Source of the DNA: an uncultured Actinomycetota bacterium
GTDB lineage: Bacteria > Actinomycetota > Actinomycetes > Mycobacteriales > Mycobacteriaceae
Reading direction: 5' to 3'
DNA: 32,000 nt
Assembly: GCA_963735655.1 (NCBI GenBank)
Contig: CAVTLW010000026.1
Coordinates: forward strand, 130,871-162,870
A program made the position numbers and the translations under genes. The notes beneath the pieces were generated by a model. It did not search any database. It worked only from the letters and a program-made list of their open reading frames with translations, and was not told the DNA's origin. Below, one piece after another: positions 3,040 through 27,518 of the stretch. Positions within the stretch are counted from its first letter, which is position 1, and the number at the start of each line of letters is the position of its first letter.

Positions 3040-6000
3040 TTGTCGCCGCGATCCGCTAACGTCCAGCTGGTGCACAGGGGGATATACGAGTCGCTGCTGA
3101 CGGATCAGCTCAATCATCAGCTCGAGCAACAGGACCACCTGCGGGCCGAGTACGGCACTGTTGACGAGGCCGAGCAGGCGCTGGCGATCGCGCGCCATCT
3201 CGCGCCGATCATCGAACGTGCAATGCTTGGCGCCGGCACCGCCGAGGACCGCGTAGAACTCGTTCGGCGGATTCTCGAGGTCCTGCCCGACGCTCACGCT
3301 GTCGGCGAGGCGCTGCACCGGGTCGAGCCGGGCAAGATCACCCGGCTCGACGAAGTGGCGAGCTCGAGCGCCCTTGGTAGTGGTCGTCTGCCACGGCCTG
3401 CCACCCCGTTCTCCGACGCCGCGCTCATGACTAACGCGCGCAATGAGCCGACACTGGCCGCCGAATTGCGCGCCGAGCTCGCGAGCGCCGACCACGTCGA
3501 CCTGCTGTGCGCGTTCGTCAAGTGGCAGGGCCTCCGACTGCTCGAGGACCAGCTCAATGAACTGTGTCGGCGGGGCATCCCGCTGCGTGTCATCACAACG
3601 ACGTACCTCGGCGCCACGGATGCTCGTGCTCTTGATGCTCTAGTCAACGAGTTCGGGGCTGAAGTCCGCATCAACTACGAAACCGACCGCACCCGCCTAC
3701 ACGCCAAAGCTTGGCTGCTGCGGCGCAACAGCGGGTTCCACACCGCCTATGTTGGGTCCAGCAATCTATCTCATGCCGCGCTCGTGGATGGACTGGAATG
3801 GAATGTCCGACTGTCAGCAGTGTCGACACCCCACCTCCTGGAGAAGTTTCGGGCTACCTTCGACTCCTATTGGGAGAACAGGGAATTCGAGTTATACAGG
3901 CCATCACAGGACGGCGACCGCTTACGAGCGGCGCTCGAGACCGCATCGGGAAGTCGAGCGCGTGATGGGATCACCGTCACCCTGTCCGGCCTCGAGGTTC
4001 ACCCCAAGCCGTTCCAAGCCGAGATACTCGAAGAACTTGACGCAGAGCGCACGATTCACGACCGTCATCGCAACCTGATCGTCGCGGCGACCGGCACAGG
4101 GAAGACCGTCATCGCAGCCTTGGACTACCGCCGACTCGCCCGCGACAGCCACGGTCGCGACCTCACACTGCTTTTCGTGGCCCACCGCAAGGAGATTCTG
4201 CTGCAAGCGCGGCGGATGTATCAAGAAGTCCTCACTGAGCCCACCTTCGGTGAGCAGCTCGTCGATGGACAGGAACCGGCCAATTGGCGCCATGTGTTCG
4301 CCAGCATCCAATCCCTCTCGCAGGCCAGGCTTTCCGGCATCGCACCGGATCACTTCGACGTTGTGGTGATCGACGAGTTCCACCACGCCGAAGCCGCGTC
4401 TTACCGGCGGTTGCTTGACCACGTGCGTCCAATCGAACTGGTCGGACTTACCGCTACCCCCGAGCGCGCCGACGGTGTCGACGTCCGCGAGTTCTTCGGT
4501 GGCCGGGTCGCCGCCGAACTCCGATTATGGGAAGCACTGGAGCAGAACCTGCTGTGCCCGTTCCACTACTTTGGCATCCACGACGGAACAGATCTTGAAT
4601 CCGTCCAGTGGAGGCGTGGCGGCTACGACCTAGCTTTTCTAAGCAGCGTTTACACGGGCAACGATGCCCGCACCCGCATTGTGCTCAAGGAGCTCAATGA
4701 CAAGGTCGCCGACATTGCGGCCATGCGTGCCTTGGGATTCTGTGTCAGCGTCGAGCACGCGCGGTACATGGCGCAGCGCTTCGTCGAAGCCGGTATCCCT
4801 GCCCGCGCCGTGTCCGCTGAGACTTCCGCGGCCGATCGTCGCGACGCGCTCACCGCGCTGCGCAACCGCGAGATCAACATCCTCTTCGCGGTCGACCTCT
4901 TTAACGAAGGCCTCGACATTCCCGAGGTCGACACCGTGCTATTCCTGCGCCCCACGGAGAGCGCGACCGTATTCCTGCAGCAGTTAGGGCGCGGCCTGCG
5001 GCTTACTAGGGGTAAGACCGTACTGACCGCGCTGGACTTTGTTGGGCACCAACGCCGTGAGTTCCGGTTCGATCAACGTTTTCGAGCGATGAGCGGCATT
5101 GGCGGGAAGGCGCTGCAGCGTCAGGTCGAAGAGGGCTTTCCGTTCCTGCCCTCGGGCAGTCAGATCGTGCTCGACCCAGTCGCGCGGGATCTCGTATTAG
5201 AGAACATCCGACAGCAGGTCGCTCCGAGATGGGCGGTGCTGGTATCCGAAGTGCGTGCACATCCGGACAATCGGCTGGCGTCCTACCTCGATGCGTCCGG
5301 ACGTGGCCTGGAAGACGTCCTAAAGAACAATCGATCGTGGACGTCGCTGTGTCGCGACGCCGGCAAACTCGGTTCGGAACCCGGTCAGCGCGAGGCCGAT
5401 CTCGTCAAACGTGTTCGCGCGGTCGCCCACGTCGACGACCGTCGTCGGTGGACTGTCTACCGCTCGATCCTCGACGGCACCGTTGACATGGACAGCCCCA
5501 TCGAGCGGCGCCTTGCCGAGATGCTGTTCTACTCGTTGAACCCAAATGGCGGCGGATTCAACAGTCCTGCAGCAGGACTCGATGCGCTCCAAGGCGAAGC
5601 GGTCGTCGACGAGCTGCGCGAAGTGATCGACATCGCATTCGACAGTGCCCGCCGCAGCACCTACGAGTTGGGAAGCCTCGTCCCCGAGCTCGCCCAGGTG
5701 CCGCTCGAAGTTCATGCAAGTTATTCCCGAGAGGAAATCCTTGCGGCCCTGGGGTTTGCGTCACTGCGTCGCACGCCTAGCACAATGCGAGAAGGGGTGG
5801 CGTGGTGTGAATCAGTCAACGCCGATGCCTTCTTGATCACGTTGAAGAAGTCCGACCGCGACTACTCGCCGACAACGATGTACCGCGACTTCGCGTTGAG
5901 CCCGAGCCTTTTTCACTGGGAATCCCAATCGACCACGTCTTCGACCGCACCGACCGGGCAGCGATACATCCATCATCGGGAACAGGGTTGCCACATACTG

Positions 6001-6171
6001 CTTTTCGTGCGGCAAGCAAAAACCAACGCACTTGGAACAGCGCCATATGTATTCCTGGGTCCGGCTGACTACGTCTCACACGAAGGGGACCGGCCGATGG
6101 CGATCACCTGGCGGCTGCGTCAGCCGATGCCGACCGAGGTGTACCAGGCGTCAACGGTAGCGGTGGCATAG
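3040..6171 (+). CDS. SauUSI-like type IV (modification-dependent) restriction enzyme: N-terminal PLD nuclease, SF2 helicase/ATPase, C-terminal DUF3427
   Basis: 1043 aa. The HKD motif reads RLHAKAWLL...AYVGSSNLS. Helicase motifs are I AATGTGKT, II DEFHH, III GLTATPER and VI QQLGRGLR. The C-terminus (FHWESQS...ILLFVR...YVFLGPADYVSHEGDRPMAITWRL) matches my memory of DUF3427. The start could be TTG 3040 or GTG 3070. Confidence 0.85.
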   Translation: MSPRSANVQLVHRGIYESLLTDQLNHQLEQQDHLRAEYGTVDEAEQALAIARHLAPIIERAMLGAGTAEDRVELVRRILEVLPDAHAVGEALHRVEPGKITRLDEVASSSALGSGRLPRPATPFSDAALMTNARNEPTLAAELRAELASADHVDLLCAFVKWQGLRLLEDQLNELCRRGIPLRVITTTYLGATDARALDALVNEFGAEVRINYETDRTRLHAKAWLLRRNSGFHTAYVGSSNLSHAALVDGLEWNVRLSAVSTPHLLEKFRATFDSYWENREFELYRPSQDGDRLRAALETASGSRARDGITVTLSGLEVHPKPFQAEILEELDAERTIHDRHRNLIVAATGTGKTVIAALDYRRLARDSHGRDLTLLFVAHRKEILLQARRMYQEVLTEPTFGEQLVDGQEPANWRHVFASIQSLSQARLSGIAPDHFDVVVIDEFHHAEAASYRRLLDHVRPIELVGLTATPERADGVDVREFFGGRVAAELRLWEALEQNLLCPFHYFGIHDGTDLESVQWRRGGYDLAFLSSVYTGNDARTRIVLKELNDKVADIAAMRALGFCVSVEHARYMAQRFVEAGIPARAVSAETSAADRRDALTALRNREINILFAVDLFNEGLDIPEVDTVLFLRPTESATVFLQQLGRGLRLTRGKTVLTALDFVGHQRREFRFDQRFRAMSGIGGKALQRQVEEGFPFLPSGSQIVLDPVARDLVLENIRQQVAPRWAVLVSEVRAHPDNRLASYLDASGRGLEDVLKNNRSWTSLCRDAGKLGSEPGQREADLVKRVRAVAHVDDRRRWTVYRSILDGTVDMDSPIERRLAEMLFYSLNPNGGGFNSPAAGLDALQGEAVVDELREVIDIAFDSARRSTYELGSLVPELAQVPLEVHASYSREEILAALGFASLRRTPSTMREGVAWCESVNADAFLITLKKSDRDYSPTTMYRDFALSPSLFHWESQSTTSSTAPTGQRYIHHREQGCHILLFVRQAKTNALGTAPYVFLGPADYVSHEGDRPMAITWRLRQPMPTEVYQASTVAVA

Positions 6172-7983: not shown

Positions 7984-9909
7984 CTACCACCACCTCTCCG
8001 GGCCGAGTCGGAGGCACTTCTGCAGGTCGGCGTCGGCGGCGCGCACTGTGGCTTCTTTGACGCGGTAGGCGGCAGCGATGTCAGCGAAGCGGCCGGTTGT
8101 CAGGTTCGCTCGTTGGCACACCATTCGTTCGATTCCGGCCGCGACCGCCGCGGGGCCGTGCGAATTAAGGAAGACGTCCTCGTCGGGCAGCCGCCACAGC
8201 GCGGCGAGGCAGCGCAGCACGCCGGGCAGGCCAAACGTGGGAATCACGCGCCGCCACAGCAGTTCGCCGACAGGGCCGAGCGGGATCCGGGGCTGCGGCG
8301 GCGCGTGCACGGCCTTCAGACCGGGTCCATGGGCCCATCGGCGCAGGTGCGCCGGCTCGAACGGCCGGTCATAGGGCAGGATTTCGTCGATCTGTCCGGT
8401 GCCCCCCGGCGCCTGCCACCGAAGCAGGAACGGGAAGCGACGACCAGCCGCTGTATCGACGCAGCCGCTGGACGCATGGCGTAAGCCCGTCGACGCCGTT
8501 GTCGTGCGGGCGGCGAACGCGACCGGTTCGTCGGTCGGCGAGATCCCCACCGCCCACGCGGCGCCCGACGGACCGTACAGCCGGATCGCCGCCGCCGCGG
8601 GCGAATCCGGCGCACAGATACGCGCCAGCCGCCGGTCGTTGCGGACCACCGCGTCCCACACCTTTCCGATCAGCTTGTCGCCGAGTTTCGGAAGCTTGGC
8701 CGGCAGTGGACTGGGATGGGCGCTGGGATCGGTGCGCACCGGCGACGGGTGCTGCCTCGGTGTCGGCGGTTGCGTGACAACCTGTTTCGCCTTCGCGGCT
8801 GGCTCGAACTTCGGGTCAGCCGGCGGTCTGGTGGGCTCGGGCACGAGCCGGGCGATCCGTGGGGGAACGCAGCTGGCGCACCCGAGCCGCGTCTTCGTCG
8901 CGACCAGTCGCTCATCGGCACCGCAGTGTGGGCAGGCGATGTCGGTGAAACGGGTTAGCGGGATGAGCCAATCGAGCGTCAGTGGGTAACGTCGGTCGCC
9001 GCGGCGGACGTCGACCGGCAACCGCCATACCGGCACCTCGTAGATGTGCAGCCGATAGGGCCGGACCTCGTGGCTCGCCTGGTACTTCTCCCGAGTCTCG
9101 CCGATCCGCCGGGCGCGCTCGTTCCGTACGCTGTCGGCGCGTGCGTCCAGCAGCTCCCGGCGATCGGCAGGTGCTTGCGCGCGCCGACGCTCGATCGTCG
9201 CGAGCGCATCGCGGTAGTAGACCTCGACGCGTTCAAGCTCCGCGTCGCGCGCCTTGTCGATGTCATCACCGAGTTCGGATCGCCGCCGCTCGGCGCACTT
9301 CTGGATAACCCGGTCCGCGAAGCCAATCGCCCCCGTCAGGCCCGTCAGGCCGGCGAGCGACGGCGAACCATCTTTCGGCACTGTCGGCAAGGCGGCGAGC
9401 TTCATACTGACGTGGGTTGGGAGCTGGCGTTGCGACTGCACATCCACCCAGCACTCGGCGCATTCCTGGTAGTGGTCGTCGCTGGACAGCGTGTAGTCGA
9501 CCAGCGCCCCGACACGCAGAATCGCGCGAACCGACCGGGTCGGTGCGCCCGTGGCGTCGATCCGTCCGTGATCGACGGTGAACTGGTCGCGCGCCATCGC
9601 CTGCAGGTGCTCAGCGGGGGGTGGTGGCGCCGCGGCCACCGGAACGGCCATCGCGGCGACGTCACCCACCGCCAGCACCTCGTCCGCGGTGCGACCCAGT
9701 GCGGGATGCCCGGCCGAGAGGAAGGTCGCACCGTCCTCGCGAGCGACATCGGGATCGGCGGTGACCTGCAGCACCTCCGGCAGCTCCAGCATCGTCTGCA
9801 GGGCCGGTGGGAGCATCACCAGCGTCGTATCGCCGCCGAATTCGGTGAGCCCGCCGCTCGCCTCGACATACCGCAGCCAGAAGTCCAGCGCCACATCGGT
9901 GCTCGTCAC
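7984..9909 (-). CDS. 641-aa protein of unknown function, translationally coupled to the SNF2 ATPase
   Basis: GTG 9909-9907 overlaps the SNF2 stop codon (GTGA). An Arg/Glu-rich helical segment spans aa ~205-280. A zinc ribbon CPHC-x14-CASC spans aa 326-347 (nt 8869-8934). A Pro-rich linker spans aa ~350-405. The C-terminal domain is Trp/Arg-rich. I recognise no catalytic motif. Confidence 0.75.
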   Translation of the reverse strand: MTSTDVALDFWLRYVEASGGLTEFGGDTTLVMLPPALQTMLELPEVLQVTADPDVAREDGATFLSAGHPALGRTADEVLAVGDVAAMAVPVAAAPPPPAEHLQAMARDQFTVDHGRIDATGAPTRSVRAILRVGALVDYTLSSDDHYQECAECWVDVQSQRQLPTHVSMKLAALPTVPKDGSPSLAGLTGLTGAIGFADRVIQKCAERRRSELGDDIDKARDAELERVEVYYRDALATIERRRAQAPADRRELLDARADSVRNERARRIGETREKYQASHEVRPYRLHIYEVPVWRLPVDVRRGDRRYPLTLDWLIPLTRFTDIACPHCGADERLVATKTRLGCASCVPPRIARLVPEPTRPPADPKFEPAAKAKQVVTQPPTPRQHPSPVRTDPSAHPSPLPAKLPKLGDKLIGKVWDAVVRNDRRLARICAPDSPAAAAIRLYGPSGAAWAVGISPTDEPVAFAARTTTASTGLRHASSGCVDTAAGRRFPFLLRWQAPGGTGQIDEILPYDRPFEPAHLRRWAHGPGLKAVHAPPQPRIPLGPVGELLWRRVIPTFGLPGVLRCLAALWRLPDEDVFLNSHGPAAVAAGIERMVCQRANLTTGRFADIAAAYRVKEATVRAADADLQKCLRLGPERWW

Positions 9910-11615
9910 GACGGGTCACCCACTAAGAGGTCGACACCTTCCCTGGTTCGGACATAGCTGCGTCTCGCCTCGGCGAGCGCGTTGCCGAGAGCGTCGAGCC
10001 GTCGCTCGAACTCGTCGTCGTCGACGGCATCGACGAACGCATCGAAAACCTCGTTCTCGAAATCGAAGTCGTCGTCGACCCGGCCGAGGATCATGTCAAG
10101 TTCACCGACGACGAGCTCGAACAGGTTGATCTTTGCGTCGAGCACGTGCATGACCTGTTGTTCGATGCTGCCCCGGCAGACCAGGTTGGTCAGCGTCACG
10201 TCGTGTTCCTGCCCAATCCGGTGCAGCCGGCCGAGCCGCTGCTCGATTTGCATCGGGTTCCACGGCAGATCGAAGTTCACCATCACATGGCAGAACTGGA
10301 GGTTGCGACCCTCACCCGCTGACTCGGTCGACAGCAGGATGGGCGTTTCGGCGCCGAACTCCGCGATCGCCGACTCCTTCTCCGCCCGCGTGAGGCTGCC
10401 GTGATACAACGCCGACGACAGCCCGGCACGCTCGACCGCAGCGACGAGCACATCCAGTGTCTGCCGAAACCCGGTGAACACCAACACCTTCTCGTCCCTG
10501 TTGACGTGGCGTCGAAGGAGTTCGACGAGCACACGCACCTTGTCCGGTTCCCGGATGGCCCGGGCCCGTTCCGCGAGGTCGTTCCAGCCGAGCTTCGCCA
10601 GCGTCGGTCCGGCGGCCGCGGGGCTGGAGCCGGCTAGCCGGGTCAGGCCGCGCAGGGCCAACCGGCTAGGTCCCGACCCGGTTGCCGCTGCCCTGACTCG
10701 CCGGACGATGTCGGCGTACAGGCCGGCCTCGTCGATGCCGGGCGTCACCAAGATCGTCTCGGCGAGGCGCGGCGGCAGCATCACGGCAACCTCGCTGCGG
10801 CGATGTCTGACCATCACCTCTCGGGTGCGTGCGCGCAGCTCCTCGGCGTTGTGCGGCCTCGACTCGACCGACGCCGCGCCATGTGTGGCGCGGAACTGGG
10901 CGGGTGTGCCGAGCAGTCCGGGCGCGACGAGGCTGACCAGCTGGTACAGGTCCGACAGCTTGTTCTCCACCGGCGTTGCGGTCAGCATCAACAGATAACG
11001 GGCGCGGAGCCTGCGCGCGAGCTTGCCTGACGCGCTTCGGGGGTTGCGGAGCCGGTGCGCCTCGTCGAAGATCACCAGGTCCCAGTTGGTGTCGGTCAGC
11101 CTACCCAGCAGCGGATCGCGGCGAGCGGCGGCGAGCGACGCGATAGTGACCGGCCGGTCCATCCCAATCTCGCGGGCAGGTGTCGACCCGGATTGGGCGA
11201 TCGTGGTCGGCAACCCGAACTTCCGCTCGAGTTCGTCGCGCCATTGGTCGACAAGTCCCGCCGGAACGATCACCAGCACTTGGTCGGCGAGCCCGCGCAT
11301 GCGTAGCTCGGACAACACCAACCCGGCCTCGATCGTCTTGCCGAGCCCGACCTCGTCGGCCAGGATGCCCCGGCCGCGCATCCGCTGCAGCACGGTCCGC
11401 GCGGCCCGCAGCTGATAGTCGAACGGCTCGAACCGCAACCGCGGTATCGCAAGGAAGGTGTCGAACCCCGGCCGTGCCCAGACGTGGACGGCGTCATCGA
11501 CGATCGCGGACCAATTCGGCTGCGGCCGTGCGCCATTGCGCAGCCGCGCCAGCAACGGTAGGTAGGCGGACAGGTCTGCTGTCGACGTCTCGCCGGCGGC
11601 GATCGTCACGGTCAT
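9906..11615 (-). CDS. compact SNF2/Rad54-family ATPase
   Basis: Motif I is DEVGLGKT, II is FDEAHRLRN (DEAH), III is LTATPVENKLSDLYQL and VI is QIEQRLGRLHRIGQ. The track ORF starts at 11678. I prefer ATG 11615 (MTVTIAAGE) because GGGAGG lies 5 nt upstream. Confidence 0.9.
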   Translation of the reverse strand: MTVTIAAGETSTADLSAYLPLLARLRNGARPQPNWSAIVDDAVHVWARPGFDTFLAIPRLRFEPFDYQLRAARTVLQRMRGRGILADEVGLGKTIEAGLVLSELRMRGLADQVLVIVPAGLVDQWRDELERKFGLPTTIAQSGSTPAREIGMDRPVTIASLAAARRDPLLGRLTDTNWDLVIFDEAHRLRNPRSASGKLARRLRARYLLMLTATPVENKLSDLYQLVSLVAPGLLGTPAQFRATHGAASVESRPHNAEELRARTREVMVRHRRSEVAVMLPPRLAETILVTPGIDEAGLYADIVRRVRAAATGSGPSRLALRGLTRLAGSSPAAAGPTLAKLGWNDLAERARAIREPDKVRVLVELLRRHVNRDEKVLVFTGFRQTLDVLVAAVERAGLSSALYHGSLTRAEKESAIAEFGAETPILLSTESAGEGRNLQFCHVMVNFDLPWNPMQIEQRLGRLHRIGQEHDVTLTNLVCRGSIEQQVMHVLDAKINLFELVVGELDMILGRVDDDFDFENEVFDAFVDAVDDDEFERRLDALGNALAEARRSYVRTREGVDLLVGDPS

Positions 11616-11811
11616 GCGGCCTCCCCACGAGCTTGTGCATGCTTGCTTGCGCCGGACGGTACCGGCGACCACCGACACGACCGACGACCCACGCCGACAT
11701 GTGACTAATGAGGCGGATGTGATTCTCTCCGATGCCCCGCCTGACGAAATCAGATCACCGTCAGGTTATGCGCGCCGGCGTGGCGGACAGCGTCGATGGG
11801 AATCGACTGAT

Positions 11812-13117: not shown

Positions 13118-13332
13118 GAACTTAGTTTATCCCAGCCTTCGGTGGGAGGCCCCCGCCCACAACTCTCCTTGTATGACCTCGGCTGATCCCCCAGAGCAGC
13201 ACGACCACCTTCTCCACGCCCCGAAACGACGTGGCGACTCAGCTGCGGATGTCCAAAAACGTTACTGCGATCACAATATGGTGGGTATTTCAAAGCCCCC
13301 AATGTGTTTGGCAGCCGGTGGAGGTAGGGAAC

Positions 13333-14727
13333 ATGACCAACGAACAAGACCGGTCCACCGTCGAAGGGCCGCCCAAGCAGCAACCACGCCGCGACCGCAC
13401 GCATTGGCTCTACGTCTCCGTGCTCGTCGCCGTGGTCGCCGGCGTGGTGCTCGGGCTGCTGGACCCGTCGGTCGGCAGGAAACTCGGTGTGCTCGGCAGC
13501 ATGTTCGTCGACCTGATCAAGATGATGATCACCCCGGTGATCTTCTGCACGATCGTGCTGGGAATCGGGTCGCTGCGGAAGGCTGCGACCGTCGGCAAGG
13601 TCGGTGGCCTGGCCCTTGCCTACTTCCTGACGATGTCGACGTTCGCTCTCGCGATCGGCCTCGTGGTGGGCAACCTGCTCAGCCCCGGCACCGGCCTGAA
13701 CGTGTCCAACGATACGTCCGGTAGGGCCCGCGAGCTGGCGGAACAGGCCCACTCAGCAGGCGGACTCGCGGATTTCATCCGGTCGATAATTCCGCACACC
13801 CTGTTCTCGGCGCTGACCGCCGGCAACGTGCTGCAGGCGCTGTTCGTTGCGCTGCTCACCGGGTTCGCTATCCAAGCGCTGCCGCGCAACGCCGCCGAAC
13901 CTGCCCTGCGTGCCGTCGACATCCTGCAGAAAGTGGTGTTCAAGGTGCTGAGCATGATCCTGTGGCTGGCGCCGATAGGAGCGTTCGGTGCGATCGCCAA
14001 CGTCGTCGGACAGACCGGCTGGGCCGGGGTGACCCAGCTGCTGACCCTGATGGTGGGCTTCTACATCACCTGCATCATCTTCGTGTTCGGCGTGCTCGGC
14101 ATTGTGCTGCGGATGGTATCCGGGGTCTCGATCTTCAAACTGGTGCGCTACCTGGCGCGCGAATACTTGCTGATTGTCGCGACCGCGTCGTCGGAGTCCG
14201 CGTTGCCGCGGCTGATCGCCAAAATGGAACACCTCGGCGTCGACCGCAGCACCGTAGGCGTCGTCGTCCCGACCGGGTATTCATTCAACCTCGACGGCAC
14301 CGCGATCTACCTGACGATGGCGTCGCTGTTCATCGCCGATGCGATGGGCAAACCGTTGTCCATCGGCTCGCAGATCGGCCTGCTGGTGTTCATGATCGTC
14401 GCGTCCAAGGGCGCTGCCGGTGTCACTGGCGCCGGGCTGGCGACGCTGGCCGGGGGGCTGCAGGCGCACCGGCCCGAGCTGCTCGACGGTGTCGGCCTGA
14501 TCGTCGGCATCGACCGGTTCATGTCTGAGGCGCGCTCGCTGACGAACTTCTCGGGCAACGCGGTCGCCACCATGGTGGTCGGTTCGTGGACGAAGACCGT
14601 CGACAAGGCACAGGTGGAAGCGGTGCTGCGCGGTAAGGATCCGTTCGACGAGATGTACATGCTCGATGAGGACGACGAACGCCGCCTGGAAGCGCGAGAG
14701 CGCGGGGAGAAGCTGGCGCACGCCTGA
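13333..14727 (+). CDS. dctA: dicarboxylate/amino acid:cation symporter (C4-dicarboxylate transporter DctA-like)
   Basis: A polytopic protein carrying the DAACS signatures ASSESALP, GYSFNLDGT and DRFMSEARSLTNFSGNAV. I prefer ATG 13333 because GGAGG lies upstream; the track ORF starts at 13231. Confidence 0.85.
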   Translation: MTNEQDRSTVEGPPKQQPRRDRTHWLYVSVLVAVVAGVVLGLLDPSVGRKLGVLGSMFVDLIKMMITPVIFCTIVLGIGSLRKAATVGKVGGLALAYFLTMSTFALAIGLVVGNLLSPGTGLNVSNDTSGRARELAEQAHSAGGLADFIRSIIPHTLFSALTAGNVLQALFVALLTGFAIQALPRNAAEPALRAVDILQKVVFKVLSMILWLAPIGAFGAIANVVGQTGWAGVTQLLTLMVGFYITCIIFVFGVLGIVLRMVSGVSIFKLVRYLAREYLLIVATASSESALPRLIAKMEHLGVDRSTVGVVVPTGYSFNLDGTAIYLTMASLFIADAMGKPLSIGSQIGLLVFMIVASKGAAGVTGAGLATLAGGLQAHRPELLDGVGLIVGIDRFMSEARSLTNFSGNAVATMVVGSWTKTVDKAQVEAVLRGKDPFDEMYMLDEDDERRLEARERGEKLAHA

Positions 14728-19395: not shown

Positions 19396-20358
19396 TCAAA
19401 ACCCAAGCGTCAGTTGGTCTCCGAGCGACTCAACCTTGACCTTCGGCGAAACAACAGATTCGTGAAACAGTTCTTCGAGGCGGTTGACGTCGGGCAGTTC
19501 GGCGGCACCGCGCCGGACCAGGGCGCTGTTGCCCGCGCCGCTACCCGGACCAATCCACGAGACGACGCGACCGTAACCATTTTTGAGGGCCTCAATTGCC
19601 CCCGCCCACGTTCCGCCCGTCTCGTGGTCGCTGGCAACCACAATCGTGCAGCGTGAGAGACCGTAGATGATCTTGTTGCGCCCCATCGCATTTCCGACAG
19701 AGAACGGAGCGCTGGGCGTGAACGGCGTCACCAGGCAGATTCGACCGTCAGCCACACCGCGTCGGGTGCCCCGTCGGGTAACAGAGCGCTCCAGGGCGTC
19801 CGCGAGTACGCCAACGACCTGGCCGCCCACCTCGAATGCAGCGTTCATCGCGTCCCCGTCGACGCCTCGTGCCGCTCCGGAAATGACGGGTAGCCCGGAC
19901 TTCACTGCGCCCTCGGCGATCTCGCGTGCGATCTGCGAGCCTTCGGCCGAGATGTCCCGTGAGCCGACCACGCCGACACCGTCAGTATCGAGCAAAGAAG
20001 TGTCGCCCACGCCGTGAAGCACCACCGGCGCCGAGTCGCCAAGCTGGGCTCGTAGCCGCTGGGGGTAGCGCTCACCGGTGCCCGTGATCGTCCAGATGCC
20101 GGAGTGGTCGAGTTTTTCGAGAGCGATCGCAAGGCCGGCAGCCCGGTCGAAAAGCGTGGCAATCCGCTCGGCATCCTCGCTGGGGATCGATAGCTCGGCG
20201 GCGATCTCGCTGGCGGTCATTCCCTGCAGTGTTGATGGTTCAATGCGTCGGCGCAGCGCCCAAAACTCCCGTGCAGGCATAGGTTTCGTCGCCGATTCGA
20301 CCAAGCGGCTGGTCAGCGCGAGCGCAGCCAAGTCCTGTTCGTCGAGAAGCATTTTCAT
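19396..20358 (-). CDS. DprA/Smf-fold protein (PsyrA/RqlI-like putative antitoxin)
   Basis: VVGSRDISAEG...LPVISGAARGVDGDAMNAAFEVGGQVVGVLADAL...GRNKIIY is the DprA Rossmann core. I prefer ATG 20358 (MKMLLDEQ) because it overlaps the RecQ-PRTase stop as ATGA. Confidence 0.85.
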   Translation of the reverse strand: MKMLLDEQDLAALALTSRLVESATKPMPAREFWALRRRIEPSTLQGMTASEIAAELSIPSEDAERIATLFDRAAGLAIALEKLDHSGIWTITGTGERYPQRLRAQLGDSAPVVLHGVGDTSLLDTDGVGVVGSRDISAEGSQIAREIAEGAVKSGLPVISGAARGVDGDAMNAAFEVGGQVVGVLADALERSVTRRGTRRGVADGRICLVTPFTPSAPFSVGNAMGRNKIIYGLSRCTIVVASDHETGGTWAGAIEALKNGYGRVVSWIGPGSGAGNSALVRRGAAELPDVNRLEELFHESVVSPKVKVESLGDQLTLGF

Positions 20359-22402
20359 CCCTTTGCCTTGCCCACAGTAAACGGATAAACCGGGCCGCTG
20401 CCAGCCGACAGCAGCAGGTCGCCCAATACCGTCATTGTCCACCGGGAGTCCACTACGTCGTCGACAAGCAAGATTGGACCGCTGGGCGCCTTCGCCCGGA
20501 ACCCGAACACCTCATCGACATTGCGGAGCTGTTGGGCGCTATTCTCCATCAGCTTCTGGGGAGCGTTGCGTCGCAGCTTGACCAGGCAGTCGGACACTTG
20601 CACGTGAAGTAAATCGGCAAGTCGGTCCGCGAAGTTCTCGACCAGCGTGCGGGTGGGATCGAGACTGGGCACATAGACGACCGTGCCGCTGAATTCGGGC
20701 ATCCATTCGTTGATCAGCGCGGCGGAAGCCTCGACGAGTACGTCGCTCAGCTGTCGGTGGCCGCGTTTTGCCTCAAGCAGCTGATCACCCCATCCCGGGT
20801 CGGTCAGGTAGCACAAGGACCGGCCGGTCTCGAGAAGGTTTCCGATACTGCCGCGTCGGTGTCCCACCCACACCTTACGAGGCTCGATGGTGATCGGGCG
20901 CTGCCTGATAAAGCTCAGGGCTTGCCCGACCAAACTTGGGTCCGTCTTTCGGTCGTATCGATTACCCGTGCAGTTATCGCACCGGCCGCACGAGTCGACT
21001 GCGTTGTCGTCGAGGACATTTCGCAGGAATGCCATGCGGCATGCTGACGTGGTCGCGTAATCGCGCATGGCCTGGTGCTCCGCCAGTCGAGCATTCCTTA
21101 CACGCTCGATCCGCGCAGTGTCGAAGCTCCACGGGCGCAGAGTGCGACGGTATTTTGACCGCTCCTTTTCGACCGCACCCTCGACCTCGAGCACTTTGAG
21201 TAGACCTGTGATCCGGGAGGTGGGCATGTTGACGTTCACCTCGATGTCGCGCTGTCCGACCCAATCGCCTTCGGCCTCGAGATACTCGACGACCTGCTCG
21301 GCATGCCATTGGATAGGAAGGCCGTGATCGAGAAAGTACTGCCAGATGTCCTCGTCGTGTTCACTCCACAGCAAGACCACTTCTGCATGGTCGACGGCGC
21401 GGCCCGCGCGGCCCACTTGCTGGTAGTACGCGACGGGAGAGTCGGGTGACTGAAAGTGGATCACGAAGGCGAGATCGGGCTTGTCGAACCCCATACCCAG
21501 CGCCGACGTTGCGGCGACGACCTTCAGATCATTCGACTTGAGTTGCCTCTCGATCTCCATTCGTCGTTCTGGATCTGTCTCGCCCGAATACGCGGCCGCC
21601 GGAATTCCCTTGGCGTTCAACCAGTCCGCAACTCGTGCGGTGTCTGCGACAGTCAGGCAGTAGACGATGCCCGACCCCGGCATTCGCGGGATCCGCTGAG
21701 CAAGCCACGCGAGCCGCTCGACAATGGTGGGGATTCGATCGAAGACAGCGCCAAGCTTTCGCGGTCGAGGCTGCCGCGGCTCAGCTTGAGGTCGGCGCCC
21801 AGCTGGCGGCGAATGTCTTCGACCACGCGGTCGTTTGCTGTTGCCGTTGTGCACAGCACGGGAACTCCTGGCGGCATGAACTCGAGCACGCGGACGAGAC
21901 GGCGGTAGTCCGGGCGAAAGTCGTGGCCCCAGTCGCTGATGCAGTGTGCCTCGTCGATGACGAGAAGGCCCGCACTGCGACTGAGCGGCCCGAGCAACCT
22001 GTCCCTGAAGTCGAGGTTGTTGAATCGCTCGGGGGACATCAGCAGGAGATCGACGCTCCGCGGCGAAGGTTGCGCTCGATCTCCTCCCACTCTCGCGTGT
22101 TGCTGCTGTTGATCGTTACTGCGTTTAGTTGCCGGCCGAGTCGCCGCTTCGATCTGATCGCGCATGAGCGCCAACAGCGGCGACACGATGATCGTGGTGC
22201 CTGCGCCCCTATCCCGCAGCAAGCGGGTGGCGACGAAGTAGACGGCGCTCTTTCCCCAGCCGGTGCGTTGTACGACTAGAAGGCGGCTGCGCTGTTCCAC
22301 GACGGCCTCGATGGCTTGCAACTGGCCGTCGCGGAATTCCGCTGAAGGTCCCAGTGCCCGCCGCAGGACCGCCAGCGCAGCGTCCTCGAAACCCATCGTC
22401 AA
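20355..22402 (-). pseudogene. RecQ-family helicase fused to a C-terminal ComF-like phosphoribosyltransferase (PsyrT/RqlH-like), frameshifted
   Basis: The N-terminal ORF 21653..22402 carries FRDGQLQAIEAV, QRTGWGKSAVYF, SPLLALMRDQ and VIDEAHCISDWGHDFRPDY. ORF 20355..21854 carries GIVYCLTV, motif VI YYQQVGRAGR and the Zn motif CRMAFL...CGRCDNC. The C-terminal GPILLVDDVVDSRWTM is a PRPP-binding loop. The two ORFs are in different frames (shift near 21746). An internal segment at about 22058-22143 is also out of frame. Confidence 0.8.
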
Positions 22403-22510
22403 GTCGTGAGCCCCTTCTGAGCGAACGTGATCAGGAGGGGAGCGTAGCGGGCCAGGGTGACAAGCGGTTGGCTGCTTGAGCTCATTTCGGGCGCCGGCGG
22501 CTGACCTGCA

Positions 22511-23593
22511 TCACGCCCACCAGGGCGGAAAACCGATGTCCAGCCGCTCGCTTTGCTTGTATCCCGACCAGGTCGGCACGCCCGGCGGTTGCCCACGATA
22601 AATCCCTCGGGCTGCCGCTACGACACGGTCATGCTGTGTAGGCCATTGCAGCTCGGAAGCGATCTCCTCCAGTACGTCACGCTTCCGCTCGAGCACACGG
22701 TTGACGATCTTCACTGACGGTAATGCCCCGCCCTTGTCGCCGTTGCAGCGCGCACAGGACAGCACCAGGTTCGACAGCCCGTCGATCCCAACTAACGACC
22801 ACGGCAACACATGGTCGAGTGGGTTGTTCGTTGGCAGATGCGTTCCGCAGTAGAAGCAGTGCGGGCCGAACGCTTCTTTGAATGGCTGACGGAGGGCAGC
22901 GAGTGTAGTGCGTTCCCGGCCGAACAGATGGCCCGCAATGTCGGGCACATCGGCGTCGAGAAACTTGTTCATCCGCCGGACATCATCGACCCACATGATC
23001 TCTAGAGCAGGCTTCAACAGGCCCGCTAGCCTCGCCAGGCCATGGGCGACACCGGGTTTCAGCACTATTGCGTCTCCGTGGGCACGAAGCGTCGACCGCG
23101 AGACATTCTCGCCCAGAAACGAGTCGTCGTACAGAAACGGATCGCTAACCGACGACCCGGGCAGCTTCTGCAGGCGGGGCAAGGGTTGCTTGGCCAACGC
23201 GATCACGATCCCATTGATCGCCTTCTGATATGCGTCCGGCCTTCGCATGATCGCCACCTCGAGCGACAGACCACGACCGCCTGCTCCGGTTGCTGCGCGA
23301 AGTTCTTTGGTGGCGGCGATAATTCGTGATTTCGATCCGGTACGGCGTTGGGCCAAGTCATGCCCCTCGAACGGGCGGACCTGTTGCCAGTAGATCGCCA
23401 GCACCCGGTGCGCCAATTCGGGAATTGCGACCCGCAACGGGTCGCCTGACCGCTCTGGCAGGTTTTCGATGCAGTGCTCGATCACCGCCATCAACAGGGC
23501 GAGTTTGTAGGTCGCATCACGCTGACCTGTCTCGAGGATCGCGACCACGCGTTGTCCCAGGAGCAGCGGATCGGCAGAGTTACCGTCCACCAT
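22511..23593 (-). CDS. HNH endonuclease with a ~240-aa N-terminal domain of unknown function
   Basis: 360 aa. The HNH motif reads CFYCGTHLPTNNPLDHVLPWSLVGIDGLSNLVLSCARCNGDKG. The N-terminus contains the helix ATYKLALLMAVIEHC. The gene is co-directional with the RecQ-PRTase gene and about 110 bp upstream of it. Confidence 0.85.
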   Translation of the reverse strand: MVDGNSADPLLLGQRVVAILETGQRDATYKLALLMAVIEHCIENLPERSGDPLRVAIPELAHRVLAIYWQQVRPFEGHDLAQRRTGSKSRIIAATKELRAATGAGGRGLSLEVAIMRRPDAYQKAINGIVIALAKQPLPRLQKLPGSSVSDPFLYDDSFLGENVSRSTLRAHGDAIVLKPGVAHGLARLAGLLKPALEIMWVDDVRRMNKFLDADVPDIAGHLFGRERTTLAALRQPFKEAFGPHCFYCGTHLPTNNPLDHVLPWSLVGIDGLSNLVLSCARCNGDKGGALPSVKIVNRVLERKRDVLEEIASELQWPTQHDRVVAAARGIYRGQPPGVPTWSGYKQSERLDIGFPPWWA

Positions 23594-25439: not shown

Positions 25440-25689
25440 TCAACACTCGCAGGCCAAGCCGTCGTTGTCGCGGTCCTGGCTGGGGCAGTAGGCCGGGGTC
25501 ATCCCTCGTGATATTGCATCTACCGTGAGCCTTCGCGTCGCTGCAGTTCTTGTAGACGCAGCTGCCTGAACTCATCTCGGTGCAGTTCGCGTCCGAAGGT
25601 TCTGCCCATGCAGTGGGGGCGACTCCGACCGTGATGGCCCAACCTGCGGCCGTGATTGCTACGGCGACGCGTTTTGCACGAATCCTCAT
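25440..25689 (-). pseudogene. small secreted Excalibur-domain protein, frameshifted near its 3' end
   Basis: The signal peptide is MRIRAKRVAVAITAAGWAITVGVAPTAWA/EP. The sequence then reads CVYKNCSDAKAHG...RDDPG. The expected ending YCPSQDRDNDGLACEC* (stop at 25440-25442) is in the +1 frame, with an extra base near 25490-25494. As written, the ORF runs on to 25246. Confidence 0.55.
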
Positions 25690-26253: not shown

Positions 26254-27518
26254 ATGGCGATTACGGATGTTCCGGCCTTCGCCCACCTGACTGACGCCGA
26301 CATCGAGAATTTGGCCGTAGAGCTCGACGCGATCCGGCAGGACATCGAGGATTCCCTGGGCCAGCGCGACGCCCGCTACATCCGGCGCACCATCGCCGCC
26401 CAACGCGCCCTCGATGTCGCGGGCCGGCTCATCCTGGCCGCCAGCTCGAAACGCTCGGCGTGGTGGGCGGGAACCGCGACCCTTGCGCTGGCCAAGATCA
26501 TCGAGAACATGGAGATCGGCCACAACGTCATGCACGGCCAGTGGAACTGGATGAACGATCCAGAGATTCACTCCACGACCTGGGAGTGGGACATGAGTGC
26601 GGCGTCCAAGCACTGGCGCAACGCCCACAACTATCAGCACCACAAGTACACCAACATCCTCGACATGGACGACGACGTCGGCTACTTCATCCTGCGCGTC
26701 ACGCGCGACCAGACCTGGGCCCCGACAACCTCGGCAACCTGCCGTACAACGCCATCCTCGCGCTGGCATTTGAGTGGGCAATTGGCTTGCAGACCGTCGA
26801 CCTCGAGAAAGTTTTCGAGGATGGCCCCGACGGCGACATCGCCCGTGAGCGCACGCGCGAGTTCACCACCAAGGCCGCCAGACAAACCGTCAAGGACTAC
26901 GTCGCGTTTCCGGCGCTCACCTCGCTGTCGCCGGCGGCGACCTACACATCGACACTGAAGGCCAACGCGGTGGCCAACGTGATTCGTAGCTTCTGGTCCC
27001 ACGCAGTGATCGTCTGCGGCCATTTCCCCGATGGCGCAGAGAAATTCACCAACACCGACATGGCGGGCGAAACCAAGGGGGAGTGGTACCTGCGCCAGAT
27101 GCTGGGCAGCGCCAACTTCGAAGGCGGGCCCGTGCTGCGATTCCTGAGCGGCAACCTGTGCCACCAGATCGAACATCACCTGTTTCCCGATCTGCCCAGC
27201 AACCGGCTGCACGAGATCTCGGTGCGGGTGCGCGCGTTGTGCGACAAGTACGACTTGCCTTACACCACAGCCTCTTTCCTGACGCAGTACGGCAGGACGT
27301 GGCGCACGATCGCCAAACTGTCGCTGCCGGACAAGTACTTGCGCGCCACCGCCGACGACGCCCCGGAGACCCGCAGCGAGCGGATGTTCGCTGAATTGGA
27401 GCCCGGTTTCGCCACGACCGACCCCGTCACAGGGTGCAGGCGCGGGCTCAACACGGCGATAGCAGCGGTCCGCCAGTGGCGTCGGGAAAAAGCGCGATCA
27501 ATCGCGTCCCCAATCTGA
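26254..27518 (+). pseudogene. desA3: membrane fatty-acyl desaturase (DesA3-like), one frameshift
   Basis: MAITDVPAFAHLTDADIENLA... is followed by the His boxes HNVMHG and HNYQHHKYTN in frame 1. After ILRVTRDQTW the sequence continues in another frame (PDNLGNLPYNAILALAFEW...HQIEHHLFPDLPSNRLHEI...). The switch falls at a C4 run at 26720-26723. ATG 26254 has GGAGGA upstream. Confidence 0.85.

Follow-up and report, generated by a model that had tools for sequence, protein, structure and literature searches.

When a nuclease gene lies directly in front of a toxin-antitoxin pair, is it a third component of one defence machine or a neighbour with a life of its own? The question is raised by a 32,000-nucleotide (nt) stretch of DNA from an uncultured Actinomycetota bacterium of the Mycobacteriaceae (assembly GCA_963735655.1, contig CAVTLW010000026.1, positions 130,871 to 162,870 of the forward strand), the whole of which is called the window below. 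Between its positions 19396 and 23593, genes for an HNH endonuclease, a RecQ-like helicase bearing a phosphoribosyltransferase (PRTase) tail (RqlH) and a DprA-like protein (RqlI) follow one another, in this order, on the minus strand. A sequence-only reading of this row had assigned the last two genes to the psyrTA/RqlHI type and had offered two roles for the nuclease, either an effector or sensor attached to the helicase module in a three-gene arrangement or an independent enzyme that sits alongside. The analysis reported here favours the latter, and the locus most probably consists of two separate things, a known RqlHI/PsyrTA module and an independent HNH nuclease. The features at issue are the following.

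22511..23593, minus strand: HNH nuclease gene, 360 amino acids (aa), from its open reading frame (ORF) and matches to Pfam HNH families
20355..22402, minus strand: rqlH/psyrT, RecQ-like helicase with a tetracysteine zinc module and a ComF/PRTase-like tail, its frame interrupted in the sequence as given
19396..20358, minus strand: rqlI/psyrA, DprA-like gene of the predicted antitoxin, 320 aa from the ATG at 20358

All three genes are in the sequence as had been described, and the gap between the HNH stop codon and the RqlH TTG start (22402) measures 108 nt, close to the earlier estimate of about 110 bp. The GC content over 19-24 kb (0.61-0.67) is the same as in the flanks and there is no tRNA gene in the whole window; a compositional island was rejected on these grounds.

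The assignment of the helicase and its partner to RqlHI/PsyrTA holds, with profile support for both proteins from PADLOC and Pfam. As given, rqlH falls into two ORFs, 21653-22402 (249 aa) and 20355-21854 (499 aa), which match positions 6-222 (E 3e-89) and 224-684 (E 8e-149), respectively, of the 689-position PADLOC PsyrT profile, and Pfam recognises DEAD (E 9e-24), Helicase_C (E 3e-17) and RecQ_Zn_bind (E 3.7e-7) in them. Undoing the three single-nucleotide indels described further below yields a repaired translation of 682 aa that aligns without gaps or in-frame stops to an intact orthologue from a metagenome locus (L001; 88% identity). GWGKS48, DEAH150, QQVGRAGR328, CGRCDNC472 and VDDVVDS647 are all present in it, so that Walker A, DEAH, motif VI, the four zinc cysteines and the phosphoribosyl pyrophosphate (PRPP) loop are all there. 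Searched against the Protein Data Bank (PDB), the RqlH family profile retrieves RecQ catalytic cores, including E. coli RecQ (1oyw) at E 3e-74; an HRDC domain is not among the Pfam matches of RqlH or its homologues. The ComF-like PRTase tail, also part of the earlier description, carries a PRPP loop, found as ILLVDDVVDSRWTM in the ORF and as LLVDDVVDSRWT in the repaired protein. The NCBIfam matches of the tail (ORF residues 409-493) are weak (GntX E 8e-4, ComF E 9e-3) and a single-sequence PDB search with the tail alone is marginal (PRPP synthetase, E 0.28). The PRTase domain is accepted here because the PsyrT profile match continues to the C-terminus and because of matches at the family level, Pfam Pribosyltran being detected in 25 of 32 RqlH homologues (best E 3.8e-6).

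The longest ORF of rqlI spans 19396-20442, and its homologues fit an ATG start at 20358, so placed that it shares an ATGA (20355-20358) with the RqlH stop codon, the coupling noted in the sequence-only reading; in orthologous loci the two genes likewise overlap by 4 nt or are 3 nt apart. The protein matches PADLOC PsyrA over profile positions 1-308 of 398 (E 4.8e-90), PADLOC ShosA (E 6e-27) and Pfam DNA_processg_A (E 8e-36), and among solved structures DprA (3uqz, E 7e-11) and ShosA (9vzo, E 2e-8). Its assignment as the putative antitoxin follows from the ATGA overlap together with the similarity to DprA and ShosA. A DprA-like RqlI of 315-352 aa directly follows rqlH in nine of nine mycobacterial-type loci (the window, L001, L100 and L170-L175; M. 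smegmatis is not among them). The mycobacterial RqlI proteins lack the last ~90 positions of the PsyrA profile, and the window protein is without the C-terminal helix-turn-helix segment of E. coli RqlI (PMC4670107). M. smegmatis has been reported to encode RqlH and to be without an RqlI orthologue (PMC4670107). The shortened form of the mycobacterial proteins may explain why RqlI was overlooked in this organism, or M. smegmatis may differ. On its sequence, then, the rqlH-rqlI pair is an ordinary representative of RqlHI/PsyrTA, a known two-gene module with toxin-antitoxin and anti-phage function.

Whether the HNH gene belongs to this module was approached through its conservation, from the side of either gene. 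The broad survey of RqlH was a scan of species-representative genomes that gave at least 80 RqlH loci at 43-61% identity, the matches listed being from Actinomycetota, Chloroflexota, Cyanobacteria, Pseudomonas, Streptomyces and others, with no Mycobacterium. Among the matches listed, none of the 80 diverse RqlH loci had an HNH relative detectable by tblastn or by the hidden Markov model (HMM) of the HNH family, and no gene was conserved 5' of RqlH, the biggest cluster comprising three of 56 upstream ORFs; RqlI lay directly 3' of RqlH in 35 of 73 informative loci. The reciprocal survey, a metagenome scan for the nuclease, returned 80 loci at 70-85% identity, which together with the loci collected earlier were reduced to 64 lineages by dereplication at 97%. 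RqlH is found downstream of HNH in three of the 51 lineages with enough downstream sequence and is missing from the other 48. A closer sample on the mycobacterial RqlH side was assembled from a protein search and six contig look-ups (L170-L175; RqlH 73-87% identical to that of L001). One of these six RqlHI loci has an intact HNH gene directly upstream (L173, from M. duvalii, with the HNH-RqlH-RqlI arrangement) and one a remnant; in another (L175) the HNH gene lies downstream, 3.6 kb 3' of rqlI, on the far side of an SMC-like ATPase gene pair; the remaining three (L171, L172 from M. setense, and L174) have no HNH gene within 6 kb of RqlHI. The remnant, in L170, consists of the last ~60 HNH codons (5516-5734) directly 5' of rqlH, and a second, frameshifted HNH copy (13330-14045) sits ~5 kb downstream, with a MazG/PRA-PH-like gene in front of it; the two copies are evidence of HNH duplication and decay in this neighbourhood. 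The identities of the two genes to those of the window are incongruent, with 79% for HNH and 92% for RqlH in L100, and 87% and 88%, respectively, in L001. The HNH gene is therefore regarded as a neighbour and not a third component, because in other genomes it usually occurs without RqlHI.

The region between the HNH gene and rqlH points in the same direction. It contains one further feature.

22441..22462, minus strand: promoter-like block TGTCACCCTGGCCCGCTACGCT, 60 nt 5' of the RqlH start, a putative control element

The block includes the hexamer TACGCT, which fits TAnnnT, the -10 pattern of mycobacteria. A corresponding pattern, TGTC[AG]-N8-14-[CT]TA[CG][GAT]CT, is found 59-66 nt 5' of the RqlH start in six of the nine mycobacterial-type loci, three of which have no HNH gene upstream, and it occurs only once in the whole window with both strands counted. 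A scan of the row for sigma-70-type promoters, the consensus of which is unsuited to mycobacteria, found nothing. With this candidate promoter block at one end and the ATGA overlap within, rqlHI would form a self-contained two-gene unit.

What, then, is the HNH protein? Pfam HNH (E 9e-8), HNH_4 and HNH_5 cover only residues 246-292, and residues 1-240 have zero Pfam matches even at E<=10, in agreement with the ~240 unassigned N-terminal residues of the sequence-only reading. The zinc-type HNH motif reads C246-x2-C249, D260-H261, N275 and C280-x2-C283-N284; C246, C249, D260, H261, N275, C283 and N284 are invariant in an alignment of 91 sequences, and C280 is at least 90% conserved. An AlphaFold2 model based on this diverse alignment (mean predicted local distance difference test score, pLDDT, 92; predicted template modelling score, pTM, 0.91) replaced a first model from 31 close homologues, which had been discarded for its low confidence (pLDDT 59.5) and meaningless Foldseek matches. 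The model predicts a mostly helical domain with a winged-helix-like start (residues 9-242), followed by a beta-beta-alpha HNH fold and a helical tail with a beta-hairpin. Only the HNH part finds Foldseek matches among PDB and viral models, namely the HNH domains of Cas9 and of the Gme nicking enzyme (probability 0.96-1.0). Neither Pfam nor Foldseek recognises a modification-reading domain (McrA-N, SRA, PUA/EVE, DUF3427 or the sulphur-binding domain, SBD) in the protein. The N-domain alone retrieved 969 representatives at 50% clustering, 450 of them with E<=1e-10, among them longer proteins that join it to helix-turn-helix domains and to other His-Me finger nuclease domains. The full family ranges over Mycobacteriales and Kineococcus at 40-99% identity and is not a named PADLOC system. 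A phage origin was considered and rejected, as a search of 50,697 phage records gave zero matches. The HNH gene is thus predicted to encode an independent nuclease of an uncharacterised, Mycobacteriales-centred actinobacterial family with a new N-domain.

The HNH family keeps other company. Its commonest neighbour is a protein of ~1040 residues that resembles the type IV restriction enzyme SauUSI, present in 24 of 80 metagenome loci and lying within 3 kb of HNH in 19 of 64 lineages. The two genes are usually convergent and directly adjacent; elsewhere the SauUSI-like gene is on the same strand, upstream, or separated by 0-4 genes. The window has an orthologue (up to 94% identical) 16.3 kb from HNH, in the same convergent orientation and with mostly metabolic genes in between.

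3040..6171, plus strand: SauUSI-like type IV restriction enzyme, 1043 aa (Pfam and PADLOC), a context gene

This intact polypeptide combines the Pfam domains PLDc_2, ResIII, Helicase_C and DUF3427 and matches positions 15-940 of the 945 in the PADLOC mREase_IV profile PDLC03659 (1096 bits). The architecture of phospholipase D (PLD) nuclease, superfamily 2 (SF2) helicase and DUF3427 is that of SauUSI from Staphylococcus aureus (PMC3141236); the gene lies outside the three-gene row and is relevant as the usual HNH neighbour. Also seen repeatedly in the HNH neighbourhood are genes for a MazG-like pyrophosphohydrolase, a GIY-YIG nuclease, an SMC-like ATPase pair and a small S-adenosylmethionine (SAM)-dependent methyltransferase. 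Distant full-length relatives (24-27% identity) reside on plasmids of Acinetobacter, Pseudoalteromonas, Polaromonas, Aromatoleum, Paenibacillus and Marinomonas, often beside BREX or McrBC genes.

L176, 5403-6999: locus of a distant HNH relative
L177, 5574-7041: locus of a distant HNH relative
L178, 5357-7098: locus of a distant HNH relative
L179, 2645-4017: locus of a distant HNH relative
L180, 3085-4347: locus of a distant HNH relative
L181, 1291-6789: locus of a distant HNH relative
L182, 2052-4050: locus of a distant HNH relative

Six of these seven relatives are tightly coupled to a gene for a small enzyme: three to that of a ~195-aa class I SAM-dependent methyltransferase, two to that of a HIT protein and the sixth to that of a MazG-like pyrophosphohydrolase. 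The pairing of HNH with a small nucleotide-processing enzyme is not listed as a PADLOC system. The recurrence of neighbours other than RqlHI marks HNH as a defence-island gene with habits of its own.

Two observations stand beside these. The SMC-like ATPase (SMC_N/AAA, ~810-820 aa) and a ~109-aa protein are encoded divergently upstream of HNH in L173 (2000-4794), L175 (9774-12556) and L100. On the minus strand of the window, 7984-11678 holds a gene for a 590-aa SNF2-family helicase with strong matches to the BrxHI, DrmD and ZorD-type profiles of PADLOC, which overlaps by 4 nt a downstream gene for a 641-aa protein without Pfam or PADLOC match; the two could be another two-gene defence candidate.

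The case against a separation of HNH from RqlHI comes from the mycobacteria themselves. The window, L001, L100 and L173 all show the HNH-RqlH-RqlI order on the same strand with gaps of 73-120 nt, the remnant in L170 is likewise directly upstream of rqlH, and these loci span 72-92% RqlH identity, a range that would also fit an old accessory relationship. Where both genes occur in one locus they take this order with a short gap in five of six cases. Mycobacterial HNH and RqlH share a neighbourhood far above chance. Moreover, no terminator-like site was found in the 108-nt gap, which makes read-through transcription from HNH into rqlH possible. Taken together these points could speak for a mycobacterial three-gene variant of RqlHI in which HNH, co-transcribed or co-regulated with the RqlH helicase, works alongside it as an accessory effector or sensor, and pairs of nuclease and helicase are known in defence, Hachiman being an example (10.1101/2024.02.29.582594). 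Such a variant must nevertheless be judged improbable. The nuclease is not co-conserved with RqlH, being absent from all of the listed diverse RqlH loci and from half of the sampled mycobacterial ones, and in a further mycobacterial locus it lies on the other side; nearly all informative HNH lineages do without RqlH; rqlH has a conserved promoter-like block of its own; and the HNH family pairs with other genes elsewhere. An accessory role of HNH confined to some mycobacteria is given equally little credence. A more specific version, that the PRTase-bearing RqlH-RqlI pair fills the slot of the small nucleotide-processing partner of the HNH family in some mycobacteria and forms a genuine three-gene variant there, seems no less of a long shot; if true, it would tie the HNH nuclease activity to the nucleotide chemistry of RqlH. 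The recurring order is best explained by descent from a single ancestral arrangement of the island, often altered since by loss and rearrangement. The effector or sensor proposed at the outset thus gives way to the independent enzyme, with the qualification that its proximity to RqlH within mycobacteria is not random.

If HNH is independent, it might be a modification-dependent restriction enzyme of the McrA-like, type IV kind that works with the SauUSI-like enzyme instead of RqlHI, a doubtful reading that nonetheless has attractions. McrA-type HNH enzymes (EcoKMcrA, ScoMcrA) share the predicted layout of an N-terminal DNA-recognition domain and a C-terminal zinc-type HNH and are likewise solitary genes, the window HNH having no DNA methyltransferase adjacent to it that could be its cognate; its catalytic and zinc residues are intact, the SauUSI-like enzyme is its most frequent neighbour, and several database sources name homologues 'McrA'. 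That name, however, is the generic one of the HNH orthologous group, and the placement relative to the SauUSI-like gene varies. For the mostly helical N-domain, Pfam yields neither SRA, PUA nor DUF3427, nor any other known modification reader, and neither its sequence nor its fold detectably resembles SRA, PUA, the sulphur-binding domain or the McrA N-domain; the Foldseek match of the protein to EcoKMcrA (6ghc) is insignificant (E 0.17, TM 0.15). A modification-dependent mechanism is possible, though the predicted fold gives it no support, and the most probable role of HNH is that of a DNA-targeting defence nuclease.

A second question concerns the state of the module, as the toxin gene cannot be translated in one frame as given. 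That the helicase gene needs repair had been recognised in the earlier description; there are three single-nucleotide indels and not one, called against the intact locus L001 (82% nucleotide identity to the row).

22132..22133, minus strand: indel 1, one base extra (CGGCCGGCA, relatives CGGCTGCA); L001 and L009 are both without the extra base
22055..22056, minus strand: indel 2, one base missing (GCGTCGAT, expected GCGGTCGAT), from the alignment to L001
21736..21737, minus strand: indel 3, one base missing (ATCGAATC, expected ATCAGAATC), from the alignment to L001

With indel 2 the frame returns after 26 wrong codons, which lie between helicase motifs Ia and Ib, and indel 3 splits rqlH into its two ORFs, where the PADLOC match breaks at profile position 222/224; the alignment of the row to L001 shows no indel in the HNH gene or rqlI. 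On balance the frameshifts are probably assembly errors rather than biology, an opinion held with some reserve, because single-base indels in the same assembly break two other genes that are intact in one or both of two near-identical assemblies (L008 and L009, 99.8% identity; L009 is GCA_049697775.1). These lie at 26720, in a fatty-acid desaturase gene, and at 25495, in an Excalibur-domain gene, and undoing them gives ORFs of 438 and 82 residues. Alternatively, rqlH may be a true pseudogene, the toxin being inactivated and an orphan DprA-like antitoxin left beside an intact HNH gene in a decayed remnant of the module, which we consider the less probable outcome while taking it seriously. Several facts weigh on its side. 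All three indels fall inside 400 bp of rqlH, outside long homopolymers, and none in ~6.8 kb of neighbouring intact genes, among which are HNH, rqlI, a kinase and the SauUSI-like gene; the loss of a toxin gene is easily tolerated. L009 in turn departs from rqlH homology at ~22093, with five differences bunched in the final 55 nt before the break, and continues to its contig end for 141 nt (4641-4781) that match nothing in the window or any fetched locus. This contig end could be chimeric, or it could be an insertion in the rqlH of that strain, in which case the same toxin gene may have been disrupted independently there. Since the indels cluster in rqlH and L009 breaks inside it, the toxin gene may have undergone a real and targeted inactivation. 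Against decay, rqlH is undamaged beyond the three single bases, with its motifs and its alignment to the intact orthologue preserved, L009, at 99.8% identity, does not have the first indel, and the indel to substitution ratio of ~1:1 is typical of assembly error. Were the indels real, the toxin would be dead and only the antitoxin left.

If rqlH is intact in the organism, its likely behaviour can be read from characterised relatives. RqlH is a 3'-5' DNA helicase, and the M. smegmatis enzyme can unwind without its ComF/PRTase-like tail (PMC3378886). When RqlI is missing in E. coli, RqlH leads to SOS induction, filamentation and mutagenesis, dependent on residues of the PRPP pocket (PMC4670107). 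The genotoxic part is the C-terminal PRPP-binding PRTase-like domain, which is held in check by the DprA-like RqlI; the two genes form an operon and RqlI binds RqlH (PMC4670107). PsyrTA confers protection against phage (10.1101/2022.05.11.491447), and toxicity, neutralisation and phage defence are thus known for the E. coli and Pseudomonas homologues (PMC4670107; 10.1101/2022.05.11.491447). With the RqlH-RqlI pair of E. coli F11 and PsyrT-PsyrA of Pseudomonas syringae the window locus shares the RecQ-like helicase, the zinc module and the C-terminal PRTase-like domain with its PRPP loop, as well as the order of toxin and then antitoxin, with the DprA-like gene directly downstream and translationally coupled, and the PADLOC PsyrT and PsyrA profiles match over nearly the whole length; the differences are the shorter RqlI and the frameshifted rqlH as given. 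M. smegmatis RqlH (MSMEG_5935, 691 aa) belongs to the same genus-level clade, is similar in size to the 682 aa of the window protein, and has the same order of ATPase, linker, tetracysteine zinc module and ComF/PRTase-like tail without HRDC (PMC3378886). ShosTA has in common with RqlHI a DprA-fold antitoxin and a PRTase domain in the toxin; the ShosT toxin is without a RecQ-like helicase and couples PRTase with pyrophosphatase activity (PMC11961720). By analogy, RqlI would restrain RqlH until infection upsets the balance, when phage might free or outcompete RqlI, for instance via single-stranded DNA or replication intermediates. Freed RqlH, its PRTase activity brought onto DNA by the helicase, would then damage replication and DNA or nucleotide metabolism and so halt the infected cell. 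The HNH enzyme would most likely cut foreign DNA alone or with a partner such as the SauUSI-like protein or a small nucleotide-processing enzyme, and its place beside RqlHI in some mycobacteria would reflect a common defence-island neighbourhood instead of one machine.

The locus adds a mycobacterial example to a catalogued defence and toxin-antitoxin module and removes a three-gene reading that is unsupported. The single-base indels caution against pseudogene calls from the source assembly, and other apparent pseudogenes in the window should be read with the same care. The HNH family, large, highly conserved, resident in defence islands and absent from PADLOC, with an N-domain that has no detectable relatives, is a reasonable candidate for experimental testing. 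Finally, the DprA-like partner beside every mycobacterial-type RqlH examined bears on the question of which role, repair helicase or defence toxin, the biochemically studied mycobacterial RqlH plays.

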